NCBI GenBank assembly: GCA_017410605.1
Contig: JAFQQN010000005.1
Coordinates: 108,741 to 172,740, forward strand
Reading direction: 5' to 3'
Origin: Clostridia bacterium
GTDB taxonomy: Bacteria > Bacillota > Clostridia > Oscillospirales > Acutalibacteraceae
Length of the DNA stretch: 64,000 bases
Below the pieces are notes generated by a model that saw only the letters and a list, made by a program, of their open reading frames with translations, searched no databases and was not told where the DNA came from. Shown piece after piece: positions 19,867 through 53,807 of this stretch (position 1 is the stretch's first letter; every line of letters starts with the position of its first letter). The position numbers and the translations under genes were made by a program.

Positions 19867-19897
19867 AACTTTTTCACTTCCTATACAATTGCTTAAC

Positions 19898-19928
19898 AAA
19901 AAAGACTGTTCAAAGAACAGTCTTTTTT
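19898..19928. terminator. Bidirectional terminator
   Basis: AAGACTGTTC / GAACAGTCTT stem flanked by A- and T-runs. Confidence 0.7.
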
Positions 19929-20942: not shown

Positions 20943-20985
20943 TAAATTATCTCCTTATTTGATAAATTTTATGTAAATCAAGCCT

Positions 20986-23068: not shown

Positions 23069-23072
23069 ATTT

Positions 23073-23657: not shown

Positions 23658-23715
23658 TTTACAATCCTTTCCGCTCGGGATTTAGCAGAAAACCGTTTTT
23701 ATTCTTATTGATTTT

Positions 23716-26003: not shown

Positions 26004-26666
26004 TTATTTGCGAATAACTATATTTTGCATACTTTTAACTATGCAGTTTTCGGGCAGAACCCCTCTTACAGAGGTTAGGGGATATACAGAAGTGTTTTTT
26101 CCTATTACCGTACCGGGGTTCAAAACACAGCCACAGCCTACATCTGCCTCGTCACCCAAAATTCCACCTATTTTTCTAAGACCGGTTTCGTAGTTCTCAT
26201 CGCCCTTAATTACAACGGATTTTCCGTCTGCTTTAAGGTTAGAGCAAATAGAGCCTGCGCCCATATGAGCATGATTACCCAAAACCGAATCACCAACATA
26301 ATTATAATGAGGCACCTGAACTTTGTCAAGTAAAACTGCATTTTTCATTTCGGTTGAATTGCCGATAACGCAGTCTTTTCCTGTTATTACAGCGCCCCTT
26401 ATAAAAGCACCAGGGCGAATTTCACAACCCTCACCAATAATAGTAGGGCCAATAAGGGTAACATTGGGATAAATTTTTACACTGTTATGAACCCACACAT
26501 CTTTTTCTATTTCGTTATACCCGTCAAGACCGTTGGCTATAAGTGTTTTTATATAGTCTTTTATTTTGGGCAACATCTCCCAAGGATACTCTGCCTCATC
26601 AAAAAGTGGCTTTAAATAAGGTGTTTCACAACAAAAAAGGTCACAAGTTTTTACTTTTTTATTCAA
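26004..26666 (-). CDS. Left-handed beta-helix (hexapeptide-repeat) transferase-like protein
   Basis: Hexapeptide repeats (IGEGCEIRPGAFIRGAVITGKDCVIGNS...). It resembles the C-terminal half of GlmU / sugar-nucleotidyl-transferase proteins. Confidence 0.6.
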   Translation of the reverse strand: MNKKVKTCDLFCCETPYLKPLFDEAEYPWEMLPKIKDYIKTLIANGLDGYNEIEKDVWVHNSVKIYPNVTLIGPTIIGEGCEIRPGAFIRGAVITGKDCVIGNSTEMKNAVLLDKVQVPHYNYVGDSVLGNHAHMGAGSICSNLKADGKSVVIKGDENYETGLRKIGGILGDEADVGCGCVLNPGTVIGKNTSVYPLTSVRGVLPENCIVKSMQNIVIRK

Positions 26667-28281
26667 CTGAATATCCTCCGTTTGTTATTTCTTTAGCAAT
26701 TATTTCGGCAAACTCTTTACACTTTTCTTCGCTTTCAGCCTCAATCATAATTCTGATAACCGGCTCAGTTCCGCTTTGACGAAGCAAAGCTCTACCGTTG
26801 CCGTCAATAAGCTCTTCAACCTTTTTAAGAGCTTCATTAACGTTAGCATCAGCCAAGGTTGCGGCCTTGTCCTTAACCCTGATATTTTTTGTATACTGAG
26901 GGTAAAGGTTCACAGGCTCTGCCAATTTGCCCAGAGTGGATTTTCTGTCGCACATCTCTTCGGCTAACATAATAGCTGTTAAAATTCCGTCACCTGTGGT
27001 GGCATACTTTTTAATGATTATATGACCCGACTGCTCACCGCCAAGGGCATAATCGTTTTTCTGCATACATTCATATACAAAGCGGTCGCCTACAGTAGTT
27101 TGAACACACTTCATACCCGCCTCATCAAGACCCTTTACAAAGCCGCTGTTAGACATAACTGTTGCAACAACGGTATCGTCATTTAACATTCCCTTAGACT
27201 TAAGGCGTTTGGCCAAAATATACATAATCTTATCGCCATCAACAAGACTGCCATTCTCATCTACAGCAAGGCATCTGTCTGCATCTCCATCAAAGGCAAA
27301 ACCAACATCTAAATGCTTTTCTTTTACCAGGTTACAAAGCTTTTCGGTATGTGTTGAACCGCAACCATTATTTACATTAAGGCCATCAGGCTCGGTACCA
27401 ATAACAACAGTTTTTGCTCCCAAAGCGTCAAAAACCGATTTGGCTATCATCCAAGAGGCACCGTTAGCTGAGTCGAGGCCTATTTTAAGATTTTTATAAG
27501 AGTTTGAAGCAAGGGAAATAAGGTAACCTAAATAGCGGTTTCTTCCCGAAGAATAATCTATAATTCTTCCTATTCTTTCTCTGTGGGCTAAAGGAAGATC
27601 ATCTCCGGTTACACCGAGATAATTCATATCGCCGTCAATATAGGCTTCAATGTAAGAGGTTGTGTCGTCGTCAAGCTTTTCCCCAAAACGGTTGATAACC
27701 TTAATTCCATTATCGTAAAAAGGATTGTGAGATGCAGTTATCATAATTCCGCAATCAAATTCATCCTGACGGGTAACATAAGAAACGCTTGGGGTAGTGG
27801 TTACGTGAAGCATATAAGCATCGGCACCCGAAGCAGTAATGCCGGCAACAATAGAATATTCAAGCATATAGCTAGAAAGTCTGGTGTCCTTACCTATAAC
27901 AATTCTTGGGCGATAATTGGTTTTTGTGCAGCCCGAAAGCTCTGAAGAAAAATACCAACCCAAAAATCTTCCTACACGGTAGGCCTGCATTGAGGTGAGG
28001 TCTTTATTTGCCTCTCCGCGAAAACCGTCGGTACCAAAATATTTATTTTGTCTTTTTTCACCGGTAGCCTTAGTGTTTATTGATATTTTGTTTTGTAAAA
28101 GCTCATCAGTAGACAAATTAAAAAGCTCTGCTAACTGCAAAACCTTATCAATCTGCGGCAATGCCTGATCCATTTCCCATTTAGAAACCGATTGTCTTGA
28201 AACCTCTATTTTTTCTGCAAGTTGCTCTTGAGAAATTCCGGCAGATACACGAAGCTTACATATTTTTTCGCCGATTGTCAT
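26659..28281 (-). CDS. glmM: Xre-type HTH domain fused to phosphoglucosamine mutase
   Basis: Start set at MTIGEKICKLRVSAGISQEQLAEKIEVSRQSVSKWE (HTH_3-like). This is followed by YFGTDGFRGEAN and the TASHNP phosphoserine loop of GlmM. Confidence 0.85.
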   Translation of the reverse strand: MTIGEKICKLRVSAGISQEQLAEKIEVSRQSVSKWEMDQALPQIDKVLQLAELFNLSTDELLQNKISINTKATGEKRQNKYFGTDGFRGEANKDLTSMQAYRVGRFLGWYFSSELSGCTKTNYRPRIVIGKDTRLSSYMLEYSIVAGITASGADAYMLHVTTTPSVSYVTRQDEFDCGIMITASHNPFYDNGIKVINRFGEKLDDDTTSYIEAYIDGDMNYLGVTGDDLPLAHRERIGRIIDYSSGRNRYLGYLISLASNSYKNLKIGLDSANGASWMIAKSVFDALGAKTVVIGTEPDGLNVNNGCGSTHTEKLCNLVKEKHLDVGFAFDGDADRCLAVDENGSLVDGDKIMYILAKRLKSKGMLNDDTVVATVMSNSGFVKGLDEAGMKCVQTTVGDRFVYECMQKNDYALGGEQSGHIIIKKYATTGDGILTAIMLAEEMCDRKSTLGKLAEPVNLYPQYTKNIRVKDKAATLADANVNEALKKVEELIDGNGRALLRQSGTEPVIRIMIEAESEEKCKEFAEIIAKEITNGGYSVE

Positions 28282-28300
28282 AAATTTTGCCTCTTTTCTT

Positions 28301-28314
28301 ATTCGTTTACGAAT
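28301..28314. promoter_or_regulatory. Perfect 14-bp palindrome, a candidate operator for the HTH-GlmM fusion
   Basis: ATTCGTTTACGAAT, 20 nt upstream of the start codon and next to the SD. Confidence 0.35.
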
Positions 28315-28590
28315 ATAGTATGCTTTAAACAGCAATTATATAATATCAAATTTTTCAGCGACTTACCACCAACCGAACCTTGACTCGTTCGCTACCTTTA
28401 GTTGCTTTTACACGCATTTCTGCGATAAATTTTTTTTAAAAACCACTTTTGAGCCAAAATTTTGCCAACTATCGTTGTCAAAACCTTGTTTAGGTGTAAA
28501 TAATTTCCACTTTTAGTATAACCCTTACGATGTAAAATAGTCAATAAAATTTATTTTTACAAAAATATATAAGCAACCCGCAGTTTACTA

Positions 28591-33216: not shown

Positions 33217-35586
33217 ATGCTTTATACAAAAGAAGAGTTTATTAAACTTCGCCAAAACATTATAAGAAAAGATTTTGACAGAATGAATAATATGCAGCTT
33301 GAAGCTGTAGTTACTGCTAAAGGTCCACTGCTTGTTTTGGCCGGTGCCGGTAGCGGTAAAACAACTGTGCTTGTAAACCGAATAGCCTGTCTTGTAAAAT
33401 ACGGCGATGCTTTTTTTAGTAATTATGTTCCTCAGCTTACTGCAGAAGAATGGCAGTGCGGCCTGGCTTTTGCTAAGGGTGAAAGCAATTATTTGCCCAG
33501 TAGCGCTTATTCATATTTTCCTGCTCAGCCTTGGGAAATTCTCGCCATTACCTTTACTAATAAGGCCGCAAACGAGCTGAAAGGCAGAATAGCACAGCGT
33601 TTGGGCGATATAGCAAACGATATATGGGCCGGAACCTTTCACAGCATATGCGCAAGAATTCTTCGCCGCTATGGTGATATAATAGGCTATTCCTCTCATT
33701 TTACCATTTATGACGCCGACGACCAAAAGCGCATTATAAAAGAGATTTTAAAGCGTTCGGGAATATCTGAAAAAGAGCTTCCTCCCAAACATATTTTAAA
33801 CGAAATAAGCCGAGCAAAGGATAGCCTTATTTCCCCCGAAGAATATAAACTTAGTTGTGGCAACAATCCTATAAAAAAAGCAATAGCCGAAATTTACAAA
33901 ATATATCAAAAACAGCTTGCTTCTTCTGACGCTATGGATTTTGACGACATTATTTATAACACTGTAGCCCTGTTTGAAAAGGACTCTTCTGTTTTAGAAT
34001 ACTATCAAAACAAATTCAAGTATATTATGGTAGACGAATATCAAGATACAAACCATGCACAATACCGCTTAGTAAGTCTTTTGGCAGACAAATATAAAAA
34101 CATTTGTGTTGTGGGCGATGATGACCAAAGCATTTATTCTTTCCGTGGGGCAACCATTGAAAATATTTTGAGCTTTGAAGATAATTTTCCCGGTGCTAAG
34201 GTTGTAAGGCTTGAGCAAAACTACCGTTCTACATCGGCAATACTTGATGCGGCAAATTCTGTTATTGCTAATAACCGTGGCCGCAAGGGTAAAAAACTTT
34301 GGACAGAAAACTCAGACGACACAAAGCTTATGGTTGCAACCCTTTCCACCGAGCAAGAGGAGGCAAAATACATTGCCGACTGTATTTTAGAAGGTGCCAA
34401 AAATGGCATTAATTTTAGCAACAATGCTATTTTATACCGTATGAATGCCCTTTCAAGCACTATTGAAAATGTTTTAGTTAGAAGCGGAATACCCTACTGT
34501 ATAATAGGCGGCCACCGCTTTTTCGACCGAAAAGAAATTAAAGACGTTATTGCCTATTTGCAGGTAATTAACAATACATCTGACAATCTTCGACTGAAGA
34601 GAATTATAAACGAACCCAAAAGAGGCATTGGTGAAACCACGGTAAAAAATGCCGAACAGATTGCTCTTTCTCTTGGTTGCAGTCTTTTTGAGGTTTTTGA
34701 AAATGCCGAGGACTATCCCACCCTTTCAAGAAGCGCCGCGCGACTTAAAGGGTTTACCCAAATGATACATAAGCTTGAGGATATGGCAGAAACCTCCCCG
34801 CTTGACGAGTTATTTGAAGCCACTATAAATGATAGCGGATATATTTCTGCCCTTAAGGCCGAGGGTGAAGACTCAGCCGACAGGGTTGATAATGTAAACG
34901 AGCTTTTATCAGGCATTCGCACCTATATGAAAGAGGCTGAGGCTCCCTCTCTTTCAGAATACCTTGAAGAGGTTGCCCTTGTGACAGACATTGATAACTA
35001 CAATGCTGATGACGACCGCGTGGTGCTTATGACACTGCACTCTGCAAAAGGGTTAGAATTTGACCGCGTTTTTCTTATAGGAATGGAGGAAAATATTTTC
35101 CCAGGTGTGCAATCAATATATGACACGGCTCAGCTTGAGGAAGAAAGACGACTAGCCTATGTAGGTTACACCAGAGCCAAGAAAAAGCTTTTTATAACCA
35201 ACGCATATACAAGAATGCTCTTTGGCTCTACACAGCGTAATACTGTGTCCCGTTTTGTTAAAGAAATACCTTCGCATCTTTATAACACCTTTGGCAACTA
35301 TTCATCTTATATTACAAATCGTGACCAAAGACAGGCCTATAATAATTATTTAAACGGCTCTGATGACACCAAGCCATATTTTGAGCAAGGCGTTTCTAAG
35401 CCTTCAAATAACACAAAACCATCTACAAGCTATACAAAAGGAATGAGAGTTCGTCATAAAATTTTTGGTGAGGGGCTGATTTTAAGCAGCACCCCAATGG
35501 GCGGCGACTTTTTATTAGAAATTGCCTTTGATGAAAAAGGCACTAAAAAGCTTATGACCAACTTTGTGAAAATGGAAATACTATAA
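33217..35586 (+). CDS. pcrA: ATP-dependent DNA helicase PcrA/UvrD
   Basis: AGAGSGKTT, DEYQDTN and other SF1 motifs. 789 aa. Confidence 0.95.
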   Translation: MLYTKEEFIKLRQNIIRKDFDRMNNMQLEAVVTAKGPLLVLAGAGSGKTTVLVNRIACLVKYGDAFFSNYVPQLTAEEWQCGLAFAKGESNYLPSSAYSYFPAQPWEILAITFTNKAANELKGRIAQRLGDIANDIWAGTFHSICARILRRYGDIIGYSSHFTIYDADDQKRIIKEILKRSGISEKELPPKHILNEISRAKDSLISPEEYKLSCGNNPIKKAIAEIYKIYQKQLASSDAMDFDDIIYNTVALFEKDSSVLEYYQNKFKYIMVDEYQDTNHAQYRLVSLLADKYKNICVVGDDDQSIYSFRGATIENILSFEDNFPGAKVVRLEQNYRSTSAILDAANSVIANNRGRKGKKLWTENSDDTKLMVATLSTEQEEAKYIADCILEGAKNGINFSNNAILYRMNALSSTIENVLVRSGIPYCIIGGHRFFDRKEIKDVIAYLQVINNTSDNLRLKRIINEPKRGIGETTVKNAEQIALSLGCSLFEVFENAEDYPTLSRSAARLKGFTQMIHKLEDMAETSPLDELFEATINDSGYISALKAEGEDSADRVDNVNELLSGIRTYMKEAEAPSLSEYLEEVALVTDIDNYNADDDRVVLMTLHSAKGLEFDRVFLIGMEENIFPGVQSIYDTAQLEEERRLAYVGYTRAKKKLFITNAYTRMLFGSTQRNTVSRFVKEIPSHLYNTFGNYSSYITNRDQRQAYNNYLNGSDDTKPYFEQGVSKPSNNTKPSTSYTKGMRVRHKIFGEGLILSSTPMGGDFLLEIAFDEKGTKKLMTNFVKMEIL

Positions 35587-35587
35587 C

Positions 35588-35630
35588 AAAAAAACAGTTG
35601 TCTTACAAAAAAGTAAGTCAACTGTTTTTT
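35588..35630. terminator. Bidirectional terminator
   Basis: AAAAACAGTTGTCTTAC / GTAAGTCAACTGTTTTT. Confidence 0.75.
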
Positions 35631-35641
35631 AACTATTTGTA

Positions 35642-38404
35642 CTATCCTAAAGTATAGCTTTCAAGGGAAATCCCCTTATAATAATGCTTTAAAATTTGAT
35701 CATAGGTATAGCCGCTCTTAGCATAGGCATTTGCGCCTACCTGACTCATACCAACACCGTGACCGTAGCCCTTAACCGTAAATACAAACTTATCGTCGCT
35801 GGGACTGTATGATATGGTATATGCACTGGAGCGAAGAACATTTGCAGAGCCAACTCTGGCAGATGTAAAGAAGCTGTTTCTAAGGTAAGGGCCTTTTTGA
35901 ACAGAGCCACCGATGTTAACCGTTTTAACATAAAGGTTGTTTGCATCATAGGTGCATTTGAACCACTGATTTTTATCAGCAATTTGTGTAAGATCAACAT
36001 TAAGGCTTTCCTTAGCCCAATTAGCAATATCTACTGCTGAATATTTTCTAATGGTCTGATAGCCTGAAGCATTTTTATCTACCGAAGAATCAACACTTGC
36101 AAGGTATGGCAACTGGCTTGACCAAATATCTGCACTATTTGCAGTTTGTCCGGCGGAAATGGCATAATAAAAGGTTTGTGCAACGCTTCCGTTATAGGTA
36201 GCAACAATTCCCGCAACCTCGTTGGCTGCCTGTATAGCCCTTTCACCAGGAGCCTTCATAGGGGCTGTGGGGGTAGAACCACTGGCTGCACCATTACAAA
36301 GTAACCAGGAATAGGCCGCAACGGCCTGAGCCTTAAGTGCCTCTAAATGGTAGCCCGAACCCATTTCGGCCTCTAAAATATAAGCAATTATCTCATTAGC
36401 CGGGCCTGTTTCAACCTTACCGTTAAAGCTGTTTTTTACTGTAAGGGTTGGTAAAATTGATGGGTCAACAACCTGGGATGTAGTTGAAGAGGTTTGAGTG
36501 CTGGAATTTTCGGTATTAGAGGTTGCCTCTTCTGAAGAAATTTCCTCATTAGATGTTGTGATTTGAGAAGATACCTTAGAAGATGTTTCAACCTTAGAGG
36601 TTGTTATAGGCTTGGTAGGTTTAATAATAACCGTTGACGAAACCGGGCCCTCCTGCTCATATCGGCTGCTTCCGTTATCTGCCATATTTTCTTCGGCTTT
36701 ATCCTTTCCCGAAGATGTTGTAATTTGACTACTTATTTCCTCTAATGGGTTAGATGAAGTATGCTCAGAGGAGGTGGCCTCATTTGATGATGTGTCATTT
36801 AACGGTGCATCAAAATCTACCATAGGGCTTTCACCGTCCCTTACTCTTCTGGCAACAAGCACAACACTGCTTGTGTTATCCTTACAAATTAAGGTGATAA
36901 GCTCATCAGAAGCATCAACCGCAATGTTTGTTTCTATTCTTGAACGGTTTTTAACCCTTTCAACATAATCTAAAAATTCGGCATCGTCAAAAAACTGTGT
37001 TTGAACATCTAAAGAACTTCGCTCACTGGATACAGCATAAACAGAGAAGATCTTCCAGCGGTTTTCTAAATAAAGGGTATCGAAGGTAATAACCGGGGCA
37101 GAACGGTATTTTGAGTCATCTAAAAACTCTTTTAGTTGTGAAAAAACCGAAACATTGCTATCGCCTCTACCATAAATTACAATATTTCTTTCAAAAGAAT
37201 CTGCCGTAATGCGCGAATTGGTATAAGGCGTTCCGTATTTATTTACACTTCCTTCAAAAAGGTGGCTGTTATAATAATTAGACGAGTGTGATTTTGAGGT
37301 GACTATAGGAAGGCTTATATCTGTTCCCGGAACGCTTAGCCAACCAATAACATCGCTATTAGCTTGGTAAAGCCTTCCGAACTTATAAAGCATATTTTCG
37401 GGAAGCCCTGTCCAGGTTTGGCCGTAAAGCTCATGAGCCGTTGCAAGAACAGAAGAATAATGCATAGGCTGGTAGTTACATTCATAGCCAAAATAAGCCG
37501 CAATTAAAACAACCGCTGCCAGAACAACCGAAATTACTGCCCTCAATATATGTTTTTTACGCTTTTTAGGACTTGGTATCTCATCATTAGCCAAAAAATC
37601 TTCAAGATTATATTTAACAGTATTGCTGGCATCAGGTTGCTCTAATACCACAAATTCTGTTTCCTGTTCAGCCTTAGCTACAACCACACCGCCATTATCA
37701 TAGTCTTCCTTAGTGTCAAAGTTTTGGTCTTGTTCTAAGAAAGCATCAGAGTGAGGCTCGACAAGACTTGAAAGGTCTATTTTTTCATTGTCTTGAGGTA
37801 CCGATGGTTGCGCTTTCTTCTCAGCAAGTTCTTCTGACTCTTTTTTGTTATCGTCATCTTTCGCAATAATCTTTTCTTCTTGGGGTAAGAAACAAGTATC
37901 CTTTTCTTCCGGTAAGACTACCGACGAAGTGGTGATTTCCTTTTCAGAAAGTAGCTTTATATAAGGACAAACTAAAGAAGAAAGTAGCGTATGACGAAGC
38001 TCACGTTCACTAGTCAGCAAAATTATTGCTTGGTCATTATTTTCCATAACACAACCGCCAAGCTGACCCTCACCGTTTATAAGAGGAATAGCCTTTTCGG
38101 GAAGGGAATATTCCATAGAAGAGTTCACTGAAAACTCAGCCTTATTAAGCGGTGTAAGTATATACCCCGTAGCCCTTGCAATAATTTTTGGCAGATATTC
38201 GCTGTCTAAGGGATTAAAGCTTCCTATTGCCACAACCACCCTGCTACGAATAACGCTTTTGCTAAGGGCGGAAAGAAAATCGCTCTTATTGTGGGTCAAA
38301 TGGCTTAGAAAACGCATATTGCAGCAGCCGGAAATTTCAAACTCCATTTTAAAATCGGTAGATTGGTTGAAATAAATTACCTCTAAAGTAAGGTTCGGAC
38401 CCAC
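35642..38404 (-). CDS. Multi-domain membrane protein: degenerate CinA-N-like module, TM segment, degenerate class-B-sortase-like domain, Ser/Thr-rich linker and SpoIID/LytB domain
   Basis: GTG start 5 nt after AGGAGGTG. The SpoIID block is at the C-terminus (GYHLEALKAQAVAAYSW...YYAISAGQT...GHGVGMSQVGA). The sortase-like block is VIGWLSVPGTDISLPIV...VIYGRGD...LITLICKD...LVARRVR. Confidence 0.8.
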   Translation of the reverse strand: MGPNLTLEVIYFNQSTDFKMEFEISGCCNMRFLSHLTHNKSDFLSALSKSVIRSRVVVAIGSFNPLDSEYLPKIIARATGYILTPLNKAEFSVNSSMEYSLPEKAIPLINGEGQLGGCVMENNDQAIILLTSERELRHTLLSSLVCPYIKLLSEKEITTSSVVLPEEKDTCFLPQEEKIIAKDDDNKKESEELAEKKAQPSVPQDNEKIDLSSLVEPHSDAFLEQDQNFDTKEDYDNGGVVVAKAEQETEFVVLEQPDASNTVKYNLEDFLANDEIPSPKKRKKHILRAVISVVLAAVVLIAAYFGYECNYQPMHYSSVLATAHELYGQTWTGLPENMLYKFGRLYQANSDVIGWLSVPGTDISLPIVTSKSHSSNYYNSHLFEGSVNKYGTPYTNSRITADSFERNIVIYGRGDSNVSVFSQLKEFLDDSKYRSAPVITFDTLYLENRWKIFSVYAVSSERSSLDVQTQFFDDAEFLDYVERVKNRSRIETNIAVDASDELITLICKDNTSSVVLVARRVRDGESPMVDFDAPLNDTSSNEATSSEHTSSNPLEEISSQITTSSGKDKAEENMADNGSSRYEQEGPVSSTVIIKPTKPITTSKVETSSKVSSQITTSNEEISSEEATSNTENSSTQTSSTTSQVVDPSILPTLTVKNSFNGKVETGPANEIIAYILEAEMGSGYHLEALKAQAVAAYSWLLCNGAASGSTPTAPMKAPGERAIQAANEVAGIVATYNGSVAQTFYYAISAGQTANSADIWSSQLPYLASVDSSVDKNASGYQTIRKYSAVDIANWAKESLNVDLTQIADKNQWFKCTYDANNLYVKTVNIGGSVQKGPYLRNSFFTSARVGSANVLRSSAYTISYSPSDDKFVFTVKGYGHGVGMSQVGANAYAKSGYTYDQILKHYYKGISLESYTLG

Positions 38405-38474
38405 AAAAACACCTCCTGACCGGCCATAGTCTTAAGGCTATAGCATTATAAAAATTATTACTGTTACTACACCT

Positions 38475-41264
38475 TTATTGAATTAAACCTGAAGTTGAAC
38501 TTGTATTATAATCTTCATCATTCTCAGCTAAAGAAGCATCAGAAGATGACTGTGAAAATAGGTCATCAGTCTGTTCAGATGATACTTCGTTACCCACCTC
38601 AGTAGCTGTACTGTTTTCCTCTAGGTTGGCGTCTATCTTTGAAGAGCTTTCTTCTGTTAAATTACTACTTGACCCTTGCGAAGAAAACGAAGGCTTTGTA
38701 GTGCCCTTTTTTTGATACCAAATTTCAGGGTAAAGAGGAGAAGTGTTAACAGAGGAAGAAACGGCTTTATATTTATCATAACTATCGTCTCTTACCCTTC
38801 TGGCAACAACCACAAGCCTTGCCTCATCAAAGTCGTATGCACAGGTTGAAAGCGTGATTATTTCATCATCATAGGTTACATCTACATCTGTATTTATAAC
38901 ACTTCTTTTTCTTAGTTCTTCTATGAAAACCTTAAATTCCTCTTCGTTTGCAAAATTGCTTTGACGGTAATTGAATACCTCTCCATTATCATGCTCAGGC
39001 AACGTATTAGTAACAAATACCGAGAAAACCTTATATTTGCCCTCCCTATAAAGTGAGGTGAACTCAAAGGTTGGGTTTTCTTTATAAAAGTCATAGTTAA
39101 GATATTTCTTAAGCTCACCAAACATAGCACCATCGCGCATACTGTGGCCATAGATAATAAGATTTTTACTGTTTTCTAAAACACCTATTCTATTTTCGGC
39201 ATCTATAAAAAGGGCACCGTAGCGGCTGGTTTTCTTATTCATATCGTGATTGATATAAAAATCGTTATCATTACACTGATATACCGGATAATTAACCTTG
39301 GTATTATTGATTTTTAGCCAACCCTTAATATCCCTGTTTTGGTTTATAAGATTTTCAAAATCAAGTAAAATTCCTTCACCGTTCTTAATTTTCTCTTCAG
39401 TTTTATAGGTTTCGAATTCTGATGCCACCTTATTGTATTCATTTGTTTTTGAAACACTCTCGGCAAAATAATTAACAAGATATACAGTCGTTCCGATAAG
39501 TACTACAAAAGCAACAAGGAAAATTGTTTTTCTTATAGTTTCTTTAACACTGTCGCCCTTAAGGGGTAAAATTGCAGAAATAAACCTATAAAATTTCCCA
39601 TTCTTGTTAATTTTTAAAGCTTTGCGTATTTTTGTTTTCTTATAAACATTTGTTTTCACAGAGGCAGCTTGTTCATTATCAGTTTCAATGTTTTCCTTTT
39701 CAAGGCCGGTTATCATTTCGATATTACCGTTTTCGTCTTCAATTTCTAATTTTTCGGCTTTTTGTTCGAATGCCTCAAGGTAATCATCTTCGAAAACAAA
39801 GTTGGCCGCATTTTCTTCTGCCAATTTAAGCTTTTCGGGATTGGGAATATTTACGTCATCACCTATAGCGAATAAACCTTTCATTTCTTCATCAGTAAAA
39901 GCAAGTTGGTTAAGCGATGCTCTGGGAGTATTCCTTTTTTTGCTGAAAACAATGGGTGTAGTACCAGGTAAGGTATATCCCTCTATTACATCTAAAGCCT
40001 CACAGGGCAAGGTTCCTCTTGAAAGCAATTCATCACAGCCCTCTAAATATCTGCGAACCATATCTAATGCAGTAGAAGAGGCTATAATTCTTGTCTTTTC
40101 CCTATTGTTTACCCCGCACATAATTTTACGGGAAAAGACCTTATCGCCGTCGGTAATAGCAATATAAACTAAACCTGCCGGTTTTCCCTCGCTTTGGCCG
40201 GGCCCTGCAACACCGGTAATGCCTACACCAATATTGCTGCCGCACATTTCTCTAATACCCAAGGCCATTTGCGCAGCAACCTCAGGGCAAACTGCCCCCT
40301 TTGTTTCAATAATATTTTTATCTACGCCAAGTGCCTCAATTTTAATATAGTTAGCATAGGCAGTTACGCCCATTTCAAATACCTCTGAGGCACCCGGAAT
40401 TTCGGTGATTCGGCTAGATAGCATACCGGCAGTACAGGATTCGGCTGTTGCTAACTTTTTGTTTTTTTCAGAAAGAAGTTCAACAACCCTTTGCTGAAGG
40501 CTTTCGCAATTGTGACCGTAAATATTACTACCAAACTGTTTTTCTATTAGCTCAATAACCGGTTTGCACATTTCATTAGCCTTTTGCTCATTTCTTGCCT
40601 TGGCGGTAACCCTTATATCTACCTCTCCGGGCTTTGCGTAGGTTGCAACGGTAGGATTTTCTAGAGCGGTTAATTCACCACACTGCTCTGCCACTAATGA
40701 TTCACCAATGCCAAAGACCCTTATGTTATGCGAAACTATAACCTCACCACTCATGGCTGTAAGAACAGGAACAACCTTGTTTTCAAACATAGGAACAAGC
40801 TCACTTGGTGGGCCTGGAAGCAAAATCACGGTATTCTTATTGTTTTTTACAATATAACCAGGGGCCGTACCATTCTCATTTTCTAACACGGTTGCGCCCT
40901 TTATGGTAAGGGCTTGTTTTTTATTACTTTGGCTCATAACCCTGCCGGTTTTAGCAAAATACTCACTTATATGCTCTAAACTTGCAGTATGAAGTTCCAA
41001 AGGAAGACCAAGCACCTTTGCTGTTACTTCTTTTGTAATATCATCTTCCGTTGGACCAAGACCGCCGCTTAAAATAACTATCTCGCTTCGAGAAAGGGCT
41101 TGGGTTAACTGTTCGTTAAGTCTTGCACTGTTATCGCCCACAACAGACTGAGAATAAACATTTATGCCAAGCTCTGCTAAAGTTTGTGAAAGATATTGGG
41201 CATTTGTATTTAAAATGTCACCTAGCAAAAGCTCGGTTCCTACGCAAATAATTTCAGCTCTCAT
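38475..41264 (-). CDS. cinA: CinA (MoCF-binding domain plus PncC nicotinamide-nucleotide amidase) fused through a TM segment to a class-B sortase domain and a Ser-rich tail
   Basis: MRAEIICVGTELLLGDILNTNAQYLS, then a PncC-like part (ESCTAGMLS). The TM segment is TIFLVAFVVLIGTTVYLVNYF. The SrtB block is IKGWLKINNTKVNYPVYQ...IIYGHSM...ITLSTC...VVARRVR. Confidence 0.85.
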   Translation of the reverse strand: MRAEIICVGTELLLGDILNTNAQYLSQTLAELGINVYSQSVVGDNSARLNEQLTQALSRSEIVILSGGLGPTEDDITKEVTAKVLGLPLELHTASLEHISEYFAKTGRVMSQSNKKQALTIKGATVLENENGTAPGYIVKNNKNTVILLPGPPSELVPMFENKVVPVLTAMSGEVIVSHNIRVFGIGESLVAEQCGELTALENPTVATYAKPGEVDIRVTAKARNEQKANEMCKPVIELIEKQFGSNIYGHNCESLQQRVVELLSEKNKKLATAESCTAGMLSSRITEIPGASEVFEMGVTAYANYIKIEALGVDKNIIETKGAVCPEVAAQMALGIREMCGSNIGVGITGVAGPGQSEGKPAGLVYIAITDGDKVFSRKIMCGVNNREKTRIIASSTALDMVRRYLEGCDELLSRGTLPCEALDVIEGYTLPGTTPIVFSKKRNTPRASLNQLAFTDEEMKGLFAIGDDVNIPNPEKLKLAEENAANFVFEDDYLEAFEQKAEKLEIEDENGNIEMITGLEKENIETDNEQAASVKTNVYKKTKIRKALKINKNGKFYRFISAILPLKGDSVKETIRKTIFLVAFVVLIGTTVYLVNYFAESVSKTNEYNKVASEFETYKTEEKIKNGEGILLDFENLINQNRDIKGWLKINNTKVNYPVYQCNDNDFYINHDMNKKTSRYGALFIDAENRIGVLENSKNLIIYGHSMRDGAMFGELKKYLNYDFYKENPTFEFTSLYREGKYKVFSVFVTNTLPEHDNGEVFNYRQSNFANEEEFKVFIEELRKRSVINTDVDVTYDDEIITLSTCAYDFDEARLVVVARRVRDDSYDKYKAVSSSVNTSPLYPEIWYQKKGTTKPSFSSQGSSSNLTEESSSKIDANLEENSTATEVGNEVSSEQTDDLFSQSSSDASLAENDEDYNTSSTSGLIQ

Positions 41265-41300
41265 AAAATATATCCTTTTTATAAATTTTAGTCCAAGAGG

Positions 41301-42473
41301 TTAAGCCTCTATAGTTTCAAAAATGGTTCCCTCTACTGCTCTCTCAATCATCTCTTCAAAATCTATAAGCTGCTCTGCCTTTTCTACTGCCTCAAGCTTA
41401 GGATTGGTTCTTGGGTGCTTGGGGGTAAAAACAGTGCAACAATCTTCATAAGGCTCTATAGATGTCTCAAAGGTATCAATTTTGCGAGAAATTATAACAA
41501 TTTCTTCTTTATCCATTCCAATAAGGGGGCGAAAAACAGGCATATCTACAACCTTATCTGTAGTAACAAGAGCAGGTAAAGTCTGACTTGCTACCTGGCC
41601 CACACTCTCACCTGTTATAAGAGCCATACTGCCACTGTTTTGTGCAATTCTTTGGCTTATTCTCATCATCATACGGCGCATAATAAGAGTAAAATATTCT
41701 TCAGGGCAATTATTGGCTATTGCTTCTTGAATTTCGGTGAAAGGCACAACCCCCACAGGAATAGCACCTGAATATGCTGCAACCTTTGATAAAAGCTTTT
41801 TTACCTTTTGTTCTGCACGAAGGCTTGTATAAGGAGGACTGGCAAAATGTATTGCATTAAGCTTAATTCCCCTTTTTGCCATCATCCAGGCGGCAACAGG
41901 GCTATCTATTCCGCCCGAAATAAGAATGGAGGCTCGGCCCCCTGTTCCGACAGGCATACCGCCCGCACCATGAAGCTGACCGGCCCTTACATAAGCACCA
42001 AAATCTCTTACTTCTACAGTTACAACAACATCAGGGTTATGAACATCCACCTTAAGGTGGTGATAATTTTTTAATATTTCTCCGCCTAAGGTTTTAGAAA
42101 TTTCGGGAGAAGTTAGGGGGAATTTTTTATCCGACCTTTTTGCCTCAACCTTAAAAGTTTTTGCGGCTTTAAGCGACTCCTCTAAATAAGGAATGGCAAC
42201 CTTTATAATATCTTCCATATTTTTTTCACAAACTGCCGCACGGCAATATGCCGCAATACCAAATATTTTTTCAACTCTATCAAGTGCCTTTTTAAAAGGA
42301 AAATCCTCACAGTGGGGGGTAATGATTATTGTTGACTGAGCGCGTTTAACCTCTATATTACCCAAGGCCTTAAGGCTCTGCTTTATATTTTTAATAAGAA
42401 TATCCTCAAAGGTCATTCGGTTAAGACCCTTAAGGGCAAGTTCGCCGTTTTTTATAAGTATAATTTCTTTCAT
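41301..42473 (-). CDS. thiI: tRNA 4-thiouridine synthase ThiI
   Basis: THUMP domain plus the SGGIDSPVA PP-loop. Confidence 0.9.
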   Translation of the reverse strand: MKEIILIKNGELALKGLNRMTFEDILIKNIKQSLKALGNIEVKRAQSTIIITPHCEDFPFKKALDRVEKIFGIAAYCRAAVCEKNMEDIIKVAIPYLEESLKAAKTFKVEAKRSDKKFPLTSPEISKTLGGEILKNYHHLKVDVHNPDVVVTVEVRDFGAYVRAGQLHGAGGMPVGTGGRASILISGGIDSPVAAWMMAKRGIKLNAIHFASPPYTSLRAEQKVKKLLSKVAAYSGAIPVGVVPFTEIQEAIANNCPEEYFTLIMRRMMMRISQRIAQNSGSMALITGESVGQVASQTLPALVTTDKVVDMPVFRPLIGMDKEEIVIISRKIDTFETSIEPYEDCCTVFTPKHPRTNPKLEAVEKAEQLIDFEEMIERAVEGTIFETIEA

Positions 42474-42485
42474 ATTGCTCTCCCG

Positions 42486-43628
42486 TCATCTTACGGATTT
42501 TTTAAGTTTGGCCGACGCTGCAACCAATGCCTCATATAAAATATCAATCTCTTCCTCATTCGTTTGTGAGTTAAAGCTTATTCGAAGCGCGCTATCTACA
42601 CGATTGTTTTCAAGACCCATACTTCTTAAAACATGGCTTCCTGCACCCTTACTACAAGCGCTTCCGCTAGAAACACAAATGTTATAACCCTCTAAATAAT
42701 GCAGTAAGGTTTCAGACCTGTATCCCAAAAAGGAAAAATTTAAAATATAGGGTAAGCCGTTATCAGGCGAGTTGATTACAACATTATCAAATGCCGAAAG
42801 CTTTTCTATAGCATAAGCTCTAATTTGTTTTACCCTATCATTTCTTTGCTTTATAGGGGTTAAGGCTTTTACCGCCGCCCCAAAAGCGGCAATAGCCGGA
42901 ACAGCCTCAGTGCCTGAACGAAGATTTTTTTCCTGCCCACCGCCCAAAATTAATGCCGGAAGCTTTATTCCCTTTTTCACATATAAAGCACCTGAGCCTT
43001 TTATACCGTGAATTTTATGGGCACTTATCGAAACAAGGTCTGCCCCAAAATCATTGGGCACAAGTTCTATTTTACCAAAGGCCTGAACAGCATCAATATG
43101 AAGCAGCGCCGGGGATTCTTTTTCCTTAATCATTTCTTTAACCAATTCAAAGGGTAAAATTGCTCCGGTTTCGTTATTAACCGCCATAAGGCTAACAAGA
43201 ATAGTATCTTTTCTAATGGCATTTTTAATGCTATCTAAGGGTATATTTCCGTTTTTTTCAGGTAAAAGATAAGTGACCTCGTAGCCTTTAGATTCCAACC
43301 TTTTCATAGGTTCTAAAATAGAAGAATGTTCTATTGCTGTGGTTACAATATGCTTACCTCTTCGGCACAAAAGCTCTGCCGCTCCAAAAATTGCTGTATT
43401 ATTGCTTTCACTACCGGAAGAAGTAAAATAAATTTCATCCTCGCGGCAATCTAAAAAAGAGGAAAGCTCTTCCCTTACAGAGGTAACAATATTTTCTGCC
43501 GCAAGACCCAGCTCATAAAGTGAAGAGGGGTTTCCAAATCCTTCGGTCATTGCCTCTAAAGCCGCCTGGATTGCCTCTGGGCAGGGCTTTGTTGTGGCAC
43601 TGTTATCAAGATAAATCAACCGTTTCAA
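42486..43628 (-). CDS. Cysteine desulfurase (NifS/IscS class)
   Basis: SAHKIHGIKG PLP-lysine and SSGSACS active-site Cys. Adjacent to thiI. Confidence 0.9.
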   Translation of the reverse strand: MKRLIYLDNSATTKPCPEAIQAALEAMTEGFGNPSSLYELGLAAENIVTSVREELSSFLDCREDEIYFTSSGSESNNTAIFGAAELLCRRGKHIVTTAIEHSSILEPMKRLESKGYEVTYLLPEKNGNIPLDSIKNAIRKDTILVSLMAVNNETGAILPFELVKEMIKEKESPALLHIDAVQAFGKIELVPNDFGADLVSISAHKIHGIKGSGALYVKKGIKLPALILGGGQEKNLRSGTEAVPAIAAFGAAVKALTPIKQRNDRVKQIRAYAIEKLSAFDNVVINSPDNGLPYILNFSFLGYRSETLLHYLEGYNICVSSGSACSKGAGSHVLRSMGLENNRVDSALRISFNSQTNEEEIDILYEALVAASAKLKKSVR

Positions 43629-43810
43629 AACGGCACCTCACAATAAAAATTTATAACACAGTTTTATATAATTGAGCCTGAATTTATATTTCAAATTAAT
43701 AAAGGCGCAATATACACTATTTTAATTATTGTACCATAAAAGACAGCACAACACAAGGTGTTAATTTGTAAATTTTAAATTAGCTAAAGAAAGATTATAT
43801 GTTATTATCC

Positions 43811-43839
43811 TTGATTTTAAATAATAAATATAGTATAAT
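43811..43839 (+). promoter_or_regulatory. SigA-type promoter for the DUF1273 gene
   Basis: TTGATT, 17 nt spacer, TATAAT. Confidence 0.5.
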
Positions 43840-43919
43840 AGCTATGCAGAAGTTTGTTTTGGGCTTATACTATTCAACCTTCTACGAGTATAGCAAAAAG
43901 TTTGATTAGAAGGTATTAA

Positions 43920-44480
43920 ATGAGCATTCCCAATACAGTTAAAGAAAAAACATGTTGTTTCTCAGGCTACAGGCCTCACAAATTTAATTTTGAATTTAAT
44001 AAAAGTGATCTTAAATATATCGAGCTTGAAAGTAACATTATAAGTGCCTTATTGTCATCTATTGAGCAAGGGTATGACACCTTTTTATGCGGAGGTGCAA
44101 TGGGCTTTGACCTTTTATGCGGTGAATTAGTTCTTCTAATTAAAGAACGCTTTCCAAACATAAAGCTTATTTGTGTTATTCCTTTTTCCGGGCAAAGCAA
44201 AAATTTTCCTGCCGAATGGAAAGAACGATATGATCGTATTACAAGCCAATGTGACAGTGTTTATAAAATTTCTGAAAAATTCAGCAAAGCTTGTTTTCAT
44301 CTTCGTAATTTTGAGATGGTATATTCCTCCTCACGATTAATCACATATTTTACCGGTCGATCAGGGGGAACAGCCAACACAATAGCACTTGCACAGAGAG
44401 AAAAGCTTGATATTATAAATATAGGCCCTGAAAAGAAAAACAAAGTTGATTCAACAATAACTTATTATGTTGGACACTAA
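43920..44480 (+). CDS. DUF1273 (YpsA-like) SLOG-family protein
   Basis: CCFSGYRPHKF...FLCGGAMGFDL...GRSGGTANT pattern. Confidence 0.8.
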   Translation: MSIPNTVKEKTCCFSGYRPHKFNFEFNKSDLKYIELESNIISALLSSIEQGYDTFLCGGAMGFDLLCGELVLLIKERFPNIKLICVIPFSGQSKNFPAEWKERYDRITSQCDSVYKISEKFSKACFHLRNFEMVYSSSRLITYFTGRSGGTANTIALAQREKLDIINIGPEKKNKVDSTITYYVGH

Positions 44481-50688: not shown

Positions 50689-52869
50689 TTATCTATAGCT
50701 TACTTCTTTGTAAAGGGTTCCAATAAAACCGGTAAGCTGTTGAACCAAAACAAATATCATAAGCACACAAAATACAACTACTAACATAGCCAATACTGTA
50801 ATAATTGTCATTACAATAAACTTAAAGAAGCCAAACTCGTGCACCGTCATATTGCCCACACAAAGCATAATTGCCGTTAAGGCGGTGCAAACTGTGCTAA
50901 TAGCGGTAAGAAGCAATGCTTCTTCAGGGGTAAACACGTGGCTGAGTGCTGTCAGCAAAATGTTGCTGACAATTGTAGGAATAAGCGCATAGCAAGTAAC
51001 AATATAAACCTGCTTCATTGTTCCCTTTCCTTCAAAGAGTGTTGACATACCCCAGTTAGCAACGGTCCAAAGAAGAACCAAACCAACACTTGTTATAAAG
51101 GGGAACACCACGTTATAACTACTCTTATCAAAGGCAACAAAGCTGAAGGAATAATACATTGTTGAAACCACTCCGCTAAGGAAGTAAAGAATCATACAAC
51201 CTGTCGCCAATTTTACCGAGCCGTTACCGTAGTAACGAACCTGCTGTGCACCCTGGAAGGGGTGAACCACGCTTTGCAGCATCGTGGCAAATTTTACATT
51301 CTTAATAAGTTTAACTTCGTGCTTGTTACTGTATACAAGGAAGAAAATAAGTCCGCCCACAAGGGCAATAGCTATAAGGAATATCCAAACGAAGTTATTA
51401 GTAAGATAATCATTTCTTACATATTTATATGCTGAACCATAAGTATCCTGGTCAAAGCCAAGCTTGGCATATTCAAGGCAAAGTTCATAATCTTCCTCAA
51501 CCAAAGCGGCACGGGCAAGACCGCGATAAGCAAGTTGAAGATTGCGGTCATAGGTAAGCGCCTTATTCCAATACTCTTTAGCATCGGAATAGTTACCTGC
51601 ATTAGTAAGATTTTGAGCTGTTTTAACCCAATTGCCGTATTCAGTTTCTTTATAAACTGTTACGTTTAAGTTAGATGTATCAACTACCAAAACATCTTGA
51701 GTAAGGTCGTTAATATGAATAGATGAAGCTTTGACAAAGGTGCCCTGCTGAAGACCTACAGAAATACCACCGCCAAAAACCGAAAGAAGGTTACAATCTT
51801 GGTCATAAATAAAAATGTGACCGTAAGTACGGCAGAGGCCATACATATAACCGTCTTTATCAACATCCATAGAGCAAAGGTCAGTAACTCTCCAAGCAAA
51901 ATAACCGGTAGACATTGGGTATTTTACGCCGCCGCCGTCAGAGAAGTTTACTCCCTCCGCTGAGGTAACCTTGGAACCGGTTTTGTCTTTAAGAACATTG
52001 GTTCCACCGGGAGAAAGCTTTTTAAGCTGGCCGGCATTAGTTTTTTGTGTGGACACAGCGCCTGTTGCTGTATAAATAAAGTTTTCATCGTCAATTGAAA
52101 TATCGGTAAAACAGTAAGGAAGCTCTTGTTCTGCATTAGCCTTCTTCATATCGCTCACAAAGATTTTTTCATAAATCTTCTCGAAAACACCAAGAATAGA
52201 ACCTTCAACAGAGTTAGAACCGTAGAAACCGTTGAAGCTTCCGTCAGGCTTATAGAGAACTGCGCCGTAATAAGAGCCTTCACTTAAAATATAGACGTAG
52301 CCTTTGGTGTCTACCGCAATCTTGTTAGGACGGTAAGAGAAATTCTCAGGAATAACATCTGCATCGGGAAGTAAAAGCACCTTTTTAACTGTTTTATCAA
52401 GACCGGTAACAATAACCCTTGCATTTTCGGTATCTGCAATATAAATTGCTTGGTCCTCAGTAACGAAAATACCCTTAGCACCTACAAAGGTAAGTGCCTG
52501 ATCGTTAAATGTAAGACTATCAATTACAGAATGAAGTGTGTAATCAGGGTTAACAACAACCACTCTGCCGTTACCGGAATCCATTATATAGATAAGCCCT
52601 TTAGTGTCAGTAAAGATATCGTTGGGTTCTTTAAAATCTGTAATACCAAGGGAAGCGGCAGTAATAGTGGTTTCAAACTCATACATTGGGGTGGACGAAG
52701 CAGTCCATCTGGTACCGGGGGCTGTCCAATAAGTATATGTGTCGTAGGGAACCTTCTGGAAGGATTCAGCAGATACTGTGCCACCGATAACGGTGGTCAG
52801 CATCATAAGCATAAGCAGAAAAGCGGCTACACGGCACACAACACTTCTTTTTTTGCTGTGTTTTTTCAT
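50689..52869 (-). CDS. Secreted NHL-repeat beta-propeller, TPR segment and C-terminal Yip1-type 5-TM domain protein
   Basis: Signal peptide. Repeated xxGxIYIxDxxNxRVxV NHL-like blades. A TPR-like GNYSDAKEYWNKALTYD segment. Multi-TM tail. Confidence 0.65.
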   Translation of the reverse strand: MKKHSKKRSVVCRVAAFLLMLMMLTTVIGGTVSAESFQKVPYDTYTYWTAPGTRWTASSTPMYEFETTITAASLGITDFKEPNDIFTDTKGLIYIMDSGNGRVVVVNPDYTLHSVIDSLTFNDQALTFVGAKGIFVTEDQAIYIADTENARVIVTGLDKTVKKVLLLPDADVIPENFSYRPNKIAVDTKGYVYILSEGSYYGAVLYKPDGSFNGFYGSNSVEGSILGVFEKIYEKIFVSDMKKANAEQELPYCFTDISIDDENFIYTATGAVSTQKTNAGQLKKLSPGGTNVLKDKTGSKVTSAEGVNFSDGGGVKYPMSTGYFAWRVTDLCSMDVDKDGYMYGLCRTYGHIFIYDQDCNLLSVFGGGISVGLQQGTFVKASSIHINDLTQDVLVVDTSNLNVTVYKETEYGNWVKTAQNLTNAGNYSDAKEYWNKALTYDRNLQLAYRGLARAALVEEDYELCLEYAKLGFDQDTYGSAYKYVRNDYLTNNFVWIFLIAIALVGGLIFFLVYSNKHEVKLIKNVKFATMLQSVVHPFQGAQQVRYYGNGSVKLATGCMILYFLSGVVSTMYYSFSFVAFDKSSYNVVFPFITSVGLVLLWTVANWGMSTLFEGKGTMKQVYIVTCYALIPTIVSNILLTALSHVFTPEEALLLTAISTVCTALTAIMLCVGNMTVHEFGFFKFIVMTIITVLAMLVVVFCVLMIFVLVQQLTGFIGTLYKEVSYR

Positions 52870-52889: not shown

Positions 52890-53807
52890 TTATTTAATAC
52901 CGGCACTACTCATGGTTTGAGTAACGCTTCGCTGTGAAATAAGGTAAACCAAAATCGGTGGTATCATCATTATAACCGTAACCGCCATAGCACATCCCTG
53001 ACGGGCTATACCGCCGGAAGCAATTGTAGATGCCGCAAAGGGCAGGGTTTTAAGCTCTTCACTAAAGATTGTACCGCCGGGAACAATAGACCACATATCT
53101 CTGAATGAGAAAAGAGTGAGGGTGAGCCAAGCGGGCTTAACAATAGGCATAGCTATCTGCCAATAAATTCTGAAAGAACCGGCACCGTCAATTCTTGCAG
53201 CCTCTATAAGAGGGTCAGGAACGTTGGTATCCATAAACTGCTTCATAAGAAATACACCCATTGAAGATGGAATAGCAGGAAGTATATAAACCAAATATGT
53301 ATCTATCATTCCAAGGGTGGAATAAATGAGGTAACGTGGAATTTCAAGGGTATATGCATTATAAAGAAGTGACATCTGAATAACGGTAAATATAATCTTC
53401 TTACCTTTAATATCTGTCTTAGCTAAAACAAAGGCTGCAGCAGAAGCAACAAGAATATGGAAGAATGTAGTTACAACGCTGACGAAAATACTGTTAAATG
53501 CATATCTTGAAAGAGGAACCGCCAAGTTATCTAACAGGCTTGGAAGAGTAAGATAGTTAGAGGGTGTGGGACTTACTACATAAAACCTGGGCGGGAAAAC
53601 CAAAAGCTCATCCAAAGGCTTGAAGGATGTGATGATACAGTATATCATCGGCAGGATAGAATAAAGACCAAAAACAACAAGAAAGAGGGTGTAGAAGAAG
53701 TTACCTGCTTTTGTACGGGTAAACCTTTTATACTGGTCTTTGCGGGATGCCTTTAAACGCAATTTTTGCAATTTTTTAGCATCTGATTTACTAATTGACA
53801 TTTGCAT
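52890..53807 (-). CDS. Carbohydrate ABC transporter permease
   Basis: EAARIDGAGSFRIYWQIAMP. Confidence 0.85.
   Translation of the reverse strand: MQMSISKSDAKKLQKLRLKASRKDQYKRFTRTKAGNFFYTLFLVVFGLYSILPMIYCIITSFKPLDELLVFPPRFYVVSPTPSNYLTLPSLLDNLAVPLSRYAFNSIFVSVVTTFFHILVASAAAFVLAKTDIKGKKIIFTVIQMSLLYNAYTLEIPRYLIYSTLGMIDTYLVYILPAIPSSMGVFLMKQFMDTNVPDPLIEAARIDGAGSFRIYWQIAMPIVKPAWLTLTLFSFRDMWSIVPGGTIFSEELKTLPFAASTIASGGIARQGCAMAVTVIMMIPPILVYLISQRSVTQTMSSAGIK

Follow-up and report, generated by a model that had tools for sequence, protein, structure and literature searches.

Results and Discussion

Does a gene that appears to tie the cytoplasmic enzyme CinA to a sortase on the cell surface encode a genuine protein and, if so, what might such a protein do? 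The question is raised by a 64,000-nucleotide (nt) stretch of DNA (hereafter the window) from a Clostridia bacterium of the Acutalibacteraceae (GenBank assembly GCA_017410605.1, contig JAFQQN010000005.1). In this window an open reading frame (ORF) at 38475..41264, here called p1, had been read from its letters alone (the original prediction) as CinA followed by a transmembrane (TM) helix and a class B sortase (SrtB). Directly downstream lies a paralogous ORF, p2 (35642..38404); both genes are on the minus strand, as are all of their features given below. Our analysis shows p1 to be a real bitopic CinA::SrtB protein, most likely fused from operon neighbours, and leans towards the view that, with p2, it would make up a membrane-spanning cell-wall module linked to sporulation.

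A complete CinA tethered to a class B sortase

The reading frame of p1 was uninterrupted in the ORF listing, running for 929 amino acids (aa) from an ATG at 41264 to a stop codon at 38475-38477. The original prediction had placed a complete CinA in residues 1 to about 410, and this was borne out by the CinA equivalog profile NF001813 (510.7 bits over aa 1-408; NCBIfam cut-off 379) and by three Pfam domains above cut-off. These were a MoCF/COG1058 domain (aa 1-170, 40755..41264; MoCF_biosynth, PF00994, matched at aa 4-169, E = 9e-38), a CinA KH-type domain (aa 178-250, 40515..40733; CinA_KH, PF18146, E = 7.5e-25) and a PncC, or nicotinamide mononucleotide (NMN) deamidase, domain (aa 254-407, 40044..40505; PF02464, E = 1e-48). 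The MoCF domain retained its GGLGPTEDD motif, the residues of which were invariant among p1 homologues. The AESCTAG motif, Tyr303, Lys308 and Thr350 of the PncC domain were likewise intact and invariant, the last three being the counterparts of Tyr296, Lys301 and Thr340 in Thermus thermophilus CinA (TtCinA; PMC4246079). Across both motifs, G67-G-x-G-x-T-x-D-D75 and E275-S-C-T-x-G280, conservation was complete or nearly so, and all 14 CinA signature residues (GGxGxTxDD, ESCTG, Tyr303, Lys308 and Thr350) were present in 141 of 154 CinA::SrtB proteins, p1 included. An AlphaFold2 (AF2) model built from a 121-sequence alignment (mean predicted local distance difference test score, pLDDT, 81.6) was confident over aa 1-440, MoCF domain included (pLDDT >90). 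In a Foldseek search of the Protein Data Bank (PDB), the CinA part of the model matched the T. thermophilus structures 4uux and 4ct8 with template modelling scores (TM-scores, normalised to the target) of 0.82-0.83 at 35% identity over 407 columns. By profile, signature residues and predicted structure, the N-terminal part of p1 is thus a full three-domain CinA.

An acidic linker and a single TM helix had also been proposed, and both were recovered. Residues 411-560 held 29 Asp and Glu against 21 Lys and Arg, and the mostly acidic stretch at aa 444-553 (39606..39935) was modelled as disordered (pLDDT <50) and was poorly conserved. There followed a basic juxtamembrane segment with a conserved P567-x-K569-G-D571 motif and then the TM helix (together aa 556-601, 39462..39599), as defined by hydropathy, conservation and the AF2 model. 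The only segment of TM grade in a Kyte-Doolittle scan of p1 was aa 580-601 (score 2.18), and it was contained in one long modelled helix spanning aa 573-620. Since the N-terminal flank of this helix is strongly basic (KKTKIRKALKINKNGKFYR...KETIRKT), the positive-inside rule keeps CinA on the cytoplasmic side of the membrane and puts the sortase on the other. From its sequence, p1 is therefore predicted to be a bitopic membrane protein with an N-in/C-out orientation and an internal anchor ahead of the sortase, the topology that the original prediction had suggested.

The extracytoplasmic domain (aa 630-826, 38787..39377) scored 187.1 bits against the class B sortase equivalog TIGR03064 over aa 575-819, a match that took in the membrane anchor (NCBIfam cut-off 153.75). 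Failure of profile models to support the sortase assignment had been named beforehand as grounds for rejecting the fusion; instead, the general Sortase family PF04203 was also matched (aa 650-824, E = 5e-14, 52.6 bits, Pfam cut-off 26.6). All of the SrtB signature elements that had been read from the letters at 38790-39335 (aa 644-825) were present, namely GWLKINNTKVNYPVYQ, IIYGHSM with His707 (codon 39144-39146), TLSTC with Cys808 (38841-38843) and ARRVR with Arg822 (38799-38801). Residues 560-870 retrieved SrtB entries among PDB sequences at E-values of 1e-33 to 6.5e-38 (phmmer), and the sortase matches of the model in the PDB were all class B (1rz2, 4lfd, 1ng5, 5b23, 5jcv and 4ux7; TM-scores 0.89-0.92, 30-36% identity). 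The domain is thus a class B sortase by profile, catalytic triad and predicted fold.

AF2 modelled aa 630-860 confidently as the sortase domain plus an ordered extension at its C-terminal end that marks this subfamily (aa 827-860, 38685..38786; pLDDT 88-95; consensus N-P-x-P-L-Y-P-x-I-W-Y-x-K-K-G), of which N840, Y845, P846, Y850 and G854 were at least 90% conserved among p1 homologues. Alignments to PDB entries stopped at about aa 825, so that this 35-aa extension is absent from solved SrtBs. The remainder (aa 861-929, 38478..38684) was a Ser/Thr/acidic tail, modelled as disordered over aa 862-929, in the position that is occupied in relatives by a Ser-rich linker and SpoIID or by PASTA repeats. 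The Ser-rich character noted originally was confirmed, with 34 Ser and Thr among the 104 residues of aa 826-929. Mean pairwise identity in the p1 family was 0.57-0.62 in the domains, 0.23 in the linker and 0.20 in the tail. From sequence and model together, both halves of p1 are predicted to be catalytically competent. An internal start from which the sortase could be made separately was considered and rejected, as the only in-frame ATG in the linker had no Shine-Dalgarno-like sequence upstream.

Reality of the fusion and its variation among relatives

An assembly or frameshift error that joins two separate genes would account for the architecture of p1, and split cinA and srtB versions do exist in some metagenome-assembled genomes (MAGs). 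The probability of such an artefact is negligible, given the uninterrupted frame and what was found in other assemblies. A search of 5.8 billion proteins returned more than 120 protein clusters (clustered at 90% identity) that share the architecture, drawn from independent NCBI, ENA, JGI and Logan assemblies. The 120 listed clusters were diverged, full-length homologues of 821-1269 aa and 41-99% identity to p1, and all carried the CinA domains and a Sortase domain, the latter degenerated in two; one was, like p1, 929 aa long and 99% identical to it. Base composition was continuous over the CinA-sortase junction, and the junction features, PxKGD and the TM helix, were found in fused and split forms alike. 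The sortase triad His-Cys-Arg was kept in 115 of the 120 homologues, the other five having His-Cys-Lys, His-Glu-Lys or Lys-Asp-Arg.

The locus itself suggests how the fusion came about. In Oscillospiraceae-type Clostridia we found a conserved gene order, nifS-thiI-cinA-srtB-spoIID. In the window, p1 is preceded by a nifS/iscS-like cysteine desulfurase gene (42486-43628) and thiI (41301-42473), which form the upstream part of the block (41301..43628, minus strand), with a gap of 36 nt between thiI and p1. What varied among relatives was the state of fusion. One locus had three separate genes after nifS-thiI, cinA (160 aa), srtB (312 aa) and spoIID (409 aa) (L009); another had cinA (427 aa) and srtB (302 aa) (L011); and in a third cinA and srtB were split and lay 268 nt apart (L002). 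In an Acutalibacteraceae MAG (L001, 7327-7356) the two were in the same frame, with only one stop codon and nine further codons between them, so that the split or fusion is of very recent date unless the sequence is in error. The window and three further loci (L004, L005 and L008) had a CinA::SrtB gene followed by a p2-type gene, and a Provencibacterium MAG (L006, 7001-10759) carried at the same locus one gene for a CinA::SrtB::SpoIID protein of 1252 aa (P0256). Judging from these sequences, CinA::SrtB most likely arose by fusion of operon neighbours. The original prediction had held that p1 would physically couple CinA to a surface transpeptidase; this stands in so far as one polypeptide is predicted to span the membrane, but because cinA, srtB and spoIID are neighbours in an operon and are fused in some lineages and separate in others, catalytic coupling need not follow.

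The range of architectures widened when the sortase region alone was compared with 1.84 billion cluster representatives. This gave 1,464 matches below 1e-30 (phmmer), of which the best 150 were assigned domains and proved to vary strikingly in length. Among them were CinA::SrtB proteins, SrtB::SpoIID proteins, stand-alone SrtBs of about 300-330 aa and five full-length CinA::SrtB::SpoIID fusions (P0190, P0235, P0252, P0256 and P0257). Four of these (P0190, P0252, P0257 and the Provencibacterium protein) were single polypeptides of 1181-1314 aa. Both His-Cys-Arg and TLSTC were kept by SrtB::SpoIID proteins and by four of the triple fusions, and P0235, the remaining one, likewise has His-Cys-Arg; the MoCF motif was degenerate in all five triple fusions. 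A shorter or partial CinA-type head preceded SrtB::SpoIID in three proteins (P0181, P0195 and P0249), and three CinA::SrtB proteins (P0107, P0111 and P0120) had three PASTA repeats, which bind peptidoglycan, C-terminal to the sortase. Other members had long N-terminal extensions that were not CinA: in the ten that were scanned Pfam matched only Sortase, and the extensions were of low complexity, Pro/Gln-rich or acidic. In a neighbour-joining tree of the sortase core, drawn without support values, p2-type sortases, active sortases bearing SpoIID, and CinA::SrtB proteins lacking SpoIID formed three clades. Altered triads were found in a few p1-type proteins (P0052, P0053, P0204, P0243 and P0248). 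At one locus (L008, 7001-12690) the p1-type copy read Lys/Asp/Arg, having lost His and Cys, and its p2-type neighbour also had no His. A Ruminococcus SrtB of 29% identity (L003) was set aside as a relative: it lacked PxKGD and YPxIWY, had a signal-peptidase-like neighbour and a C-terminal membrane region, and belongs to a different SrtB subfamily.

This variety bears on the main rival to a functional module, namely that p1 is a neutral fusion, a chimera of cytoplasmic domain, TM helix and ectodomain that was produced by loss of a stop codon and is tolerated because of its topology, in which CinA (recycling of nicotinamide adenine dinucleotide, NAD) and SrtB (surface anchoring) work independently and have no link to sporulation. 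We consider this somewhat unlikely. It agrees with the split forms, which keep the same gene order, and with L001, which is one in-frame stop codon away from fusion; the fully canonical CinA residues are also as it would have them, and it is favoured as well by the disordered, variable linker, by the unrelated nifS-thiI genes in the block and by the subfamily members whose N-terminal extensions are not CinA. Against it, fusion has not happened in one form only, as combinations recur that include CinA::SrtB, SrtB::SpoIID, MoCF::SrtB::SpoIID and the triple fusion.

A paralogue with a pseudo-sortase and a SpoIID domain

The original prediction mentioned neither the conserved operon neighbourhood nor the degenerate paralogue, fused to SpoIID, that follows p1. 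The latter, p2, encodes 920 aa and begins 70 nt downstream of p1 with a GTG start codon and an AGGAGG ribosome-binding site. Its head (aa 1-160, 37925..38404) was a degenerate MoCF-like domain: run as a family profile against the MoCF domain of CinA with hhalign it matched with a probability of 97.8% (E = 1.2e-12), and AF2 modelled it with pLDDT >90, with the GGLGPTxDD motif of CinA decayed to VGSFNPLDxxY. A single TM helix (aa 283-306, 37487..37558; hydropathy and AF2) was followed by a sortase-like domain (aa 336-525, 36830..37399) that resembled SrtB 1rz2 with a TM-score of 0.85 (Foldseek). In BLASTP the TM-plus-sortase region aligned to that of p1 at 27% identity (E = 1e-27), and its score against TIGR03064 was 106.7 bits, under the cut-off that p1 exceeds. 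Among 64 sequences of the p2 family the position of the catalytic His was occupied by Lys (53), Asn (8), Ser (2) or Arg (1), the Arg being that of p2 itself, and never by His; the Cys position was variable and the catalytic Arg invariant. Because the His is replaced, the Cys is variable and the score is below cut-off, we classed this domain as a pseudo-sortase.

A Ser-rich linker joins the pseudo-sortase to a SpoIID/LytB lytic-transglycosylase domain (aa 649-920, 35645..36460), which scored 142.5 bits against TIGR02669 (cut-off 83.3) and resembled Clostridioides difficile SpoIID (5i1t) with a TM-score of 0.78 (Foldseek). The Glu of its EAEM motif was invariant across the 64 sequences. Against the spore_II_D equivalog TIGR02870 p2 reached 161.4 bits, under the cut-off of 234.75, and for this reason we file it as a SpoIID/LytB-domain protein and not as a proven SpoIID orthologue; it is plausibly the engulfment SpoIID of the host. 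Precomputed Pfam annotation and source names record p2 only as SpoIID. An LPTLT sequence just before the SpoIID domain was considered as a sortase cleavage site and rejected, as it reads LP-x-L-[TS]-V in 64 homologues, with Leu at the position of Thr in LPxTG; more probably it forms the strand with which the SpoIID fold begins.

Mean pairwise identity in the p2 family was 0.58 in the MoCF head and 0.52 in the pseudo-sortase, against 0.19 in the linker. As the two degenerate domains are conserved like working domains, they are pseudo-domains that have been retained, not remnants in decay, and on this measure of conservation are under purifying selection. Strong selection on a degenerate head in p2, together with the CinA-like head of degenerate motif in every full-length triple fusion, is difficult to square with a tolerated chimera and argues for a non-enzymatic role of the head in these membrane proteins; the pseudo-sortase, likewise retained, speaks in the same direction.

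The same family prompts the question of whether the sortase domain might be mainly a non-catalytic scaffold, binding peptidoglycan or protein, even in p1, with its triad kept for structural reasons or for a proteolytic role. The whole p2 family keeps the fold and lacks the catalytic His, His and Cys have been lost in the few p1-type proteins named above, both copies at L008 are without His, and no substrate was seen nearby in the 64-kb window. Set against these points, the near-universal retention of His-Cys-Arg and TLSTC in CinA::SrtB proteins (115 of 120), their persistence in triple fusions and SrtB::SpoIID proteins, and the score of the p1 domain above the curated SrtB equivalog cut-off make a mainly non-catalytic sortase in p1 very unlikely.

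Proposed role of the locus

The host is an endospore former, as the window holds a spoIIIAA-AH operon (20373-25157, minus strand), in which AA, AB, AE and AH were detected and the match to AF was weak, and as ypeB and gerA adjoin the p1 locus in relatives. The closest named relatives were Acutalibacteraceae and Oscillospiraceae MAGs, Provencibacterium and Candidatus Howiella. A link to peptidoglycan comes from relatives, whose sortase is followed by SpoIID or by three PASTA repeats. A role for a sortase in sporulation has a precedent in Bacillus anthracis SrtC, which is sporulation-specific and has a wall-anchoring role (PMC3297441).

In the mechanism that we propose, p1 and p2 would associate via homologous domains on either face of the membrane. 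We infer the pairing of the heads from CinA itself, which in its T. thermophilus structure forms dimers by means of the COG1058 domains (PMC4246079). Pairing would set the active sortase of p1 beside the SpoIID lytic transglycosylase on peptidoglycan, and the resulting module might serve wall remodelling or protein anchoring in sporulation, at engulfment or as the spore wall matures. The CinA head may meanwhile remain the NMN deamidase and ADP-ribose pyrophosphatase of the cell and also act as a cytoplasmic anchoring or dimerisation module. Taken jointly, the pairing, the placing of the sortase beside SpoIID in sporulation and the dual role of the head are offered tentatively, as a possibility that we rate somewhat short of probable. 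A stronger version, in which the CinA-type head is a cytoplasmic control or dimerisation module of a trans-envelope machine, and sortase, pseudo-sortase and SpoIID act jointly on peptidoglycan in engulfment or spore-wall maturation in gut bacteria of the Oscillospiraceae type, is quite unlikely by our estimate.

Several observations weigh against a sporulation-linked module, some of which are also what neutral fusion would lead one to expect. The p1 linker is disordered and variable in sequence, as expected of independent modules. Conserved adjacency alone is no proof of shared function, because the unrelated genes nifS-thiI belong to the same block. Some near relatives within the sortase subfamily have, in place of CinA, long N-terminal extensions of low complexity, and L008, with no catalytic His in either paralogue, implies that sortase catalysis is not universally required. 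No credible sorting signal (motif, hydrophobic stretch and charged tail) was found in the 154 window ORFs of at least 80 aa; two candidates (51417-51659 and 52890-53807) were rejected as pattern matches only, unlike sorting signals. Finally, neither an obvious terminator nor a strong promoter was seen between thiI, p1 and p2, which would fit co-transcription of a housekeeping kind; in the scan for these elements (35400-44000), counts were not clearly above those of shuffled controls.

Other genes and signals in the window

A nicotinate phosphoribosyltransferase gene (pncB; 18424-19899, minus strand) lies about 19 kb from p1, and the same gene occurs near the locus in L008; its proximity may reflect clustering of NAD-salvage genes with CinA/PncC. 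A YpsA/SLOG-family gene (43920-44480, plus strand) is divergent from the nifS-thiI-cinA::srtB block and is also found near the block in L008. At 26659-28335 (minus strand) an unusual fusion of regulator and enzyme was observed; the product, 558 aa long, joins an HTH_3 (XRE-type) domain near its N terminus (aa 27-79) to a complete four-domain phosphoglucomutase/phosphomannomutase. The only Rfam match in the window was a ribosomal protein L21 leader (RF00559; 5157-5234, minus strand; 39.1 bits, gathering threshold 36), and no tRNA genes were found in it.

Comparison with known proteins and implications

Sortases are generally viewed as small stand-alone enzymes of surface display. With the known class B enzymes of Staphylococcus aureus, B. 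anthracis, Listeria monocytogenes, C. difficile and Clostridium perfringens (TIGR03064; MEROPS C60B), p1 shares the triad, TLSTC, a preceding TM anchor and the fold. Those proteins are of about 220-260 aa with an N-terminal anchor, whereas the anchor of p1 is internal, behind a cytoplasmic region of 560 aa, and p1 adds the 35-aa C-terminal extension and the PxKGD motif ahead of the TM helix. Its partners are cinA and spoIID and not isd or pilus genes, and no adjacent NPxTx or (S/P)PxTG substrate was found in the window.

CinA is widespread, and its role in the cell is debated, with competence and RecA targeting, NAD recycling and drug tolerance all under discussion. p1 has in common with CinA (T. 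thermophilus 4uux; NF001813) the three domains, the signature and catalytic residues, the fold and the locus at which relatives encode stand-alone cinA. Described CinA is soluble and of about 400-420 aa, in contrast to the 929-aa, membrane-tethered p1, although the CinA of Streptococcus pneumoniae is reportedly membrane-associated (Masure et al. 1998, as cited in PMC4246079). In model Firmicutes cinA is linked to recA, which is not a strictly defining trait; p1 has no adjacent recA and is flanked by thiI and p2.

Similarly, p2 and the triple fusions share the SpoIID/LytB domain, the catalytic Glu motif and the fold with the SpoIID of the engulfment DMP machinery (Bacillus subtilis; C. difficile 5i1t; B. 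anthracis 4rwr), in a host that has spoIIIA. Canonical SpoIID is about 340 aa long with its own N-terminal TM helix, whereas here the domain comes last, after a degenerate MoCF head, a TM helix, a sortase that is either active or a pseudo-sortase, and a Ser-rich linker. For the role proposed above, the nearest precedent in function is B. anthracis sortase C, a class D enzyme that acts on mother-cell and forespore peptidoglycan in sporulation (PMC3297441); it differs in class, is a small single-domain protein with known LPNTA substrates, BasI and BasH, which it anchors, and is joined to neither CinA nor SpoIID.

The original prediction knew of no described CinA-sortase fusion, and none was found in full-text literature searches covering CinA-sortase fusion, sortase fusions more widely, class B and other sporulation sortases in Clostridia, SpoIID-sortase, and engulfment or forespore sortases; a survey of engulfment components (PMC7924749) mentions neither sortase nor CinA. 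Both domain families are textbook material, and it is their joining in one protein, the paralogue with its pseudo-sortase, the added SpoIID and PASTA domains and the subfamily motifs that we did not find described. In databases, homologues of p1 are called only 'competence/damage-inducible protein A', 'nicotinamide-nucleotide amidohydrolase family protein' or 'SrtB family sortase', and the Provencibacterium triple fusion P0256 is in NCBI only as a 'nicotinamide-nucleotide amidohydrolase family protein'. This amounts to systematic under-annotation, in which proteins of 900-1300 aa are named in public databases after one of their domains.

The finding means that a large, conserved protein family of abundant gut spore-formers covalently ties CinA to a sortase and repeatedly adds SpoIID. 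As 'Rosetta stone' gene fusions, these proteins provide testable leads to a function that a subfamily of class B sortases might have in the envelope or in sporulation, to a use of the CinA/MoCF fold other than as an enzyme and to a natural pseudo-sortase. If the head does act as a cytoplasmic control module, the status of pyridine nucleotides or ADP-ribose would be tied to spore morphogenesis, and class B sortases would have a new role outside surface display.

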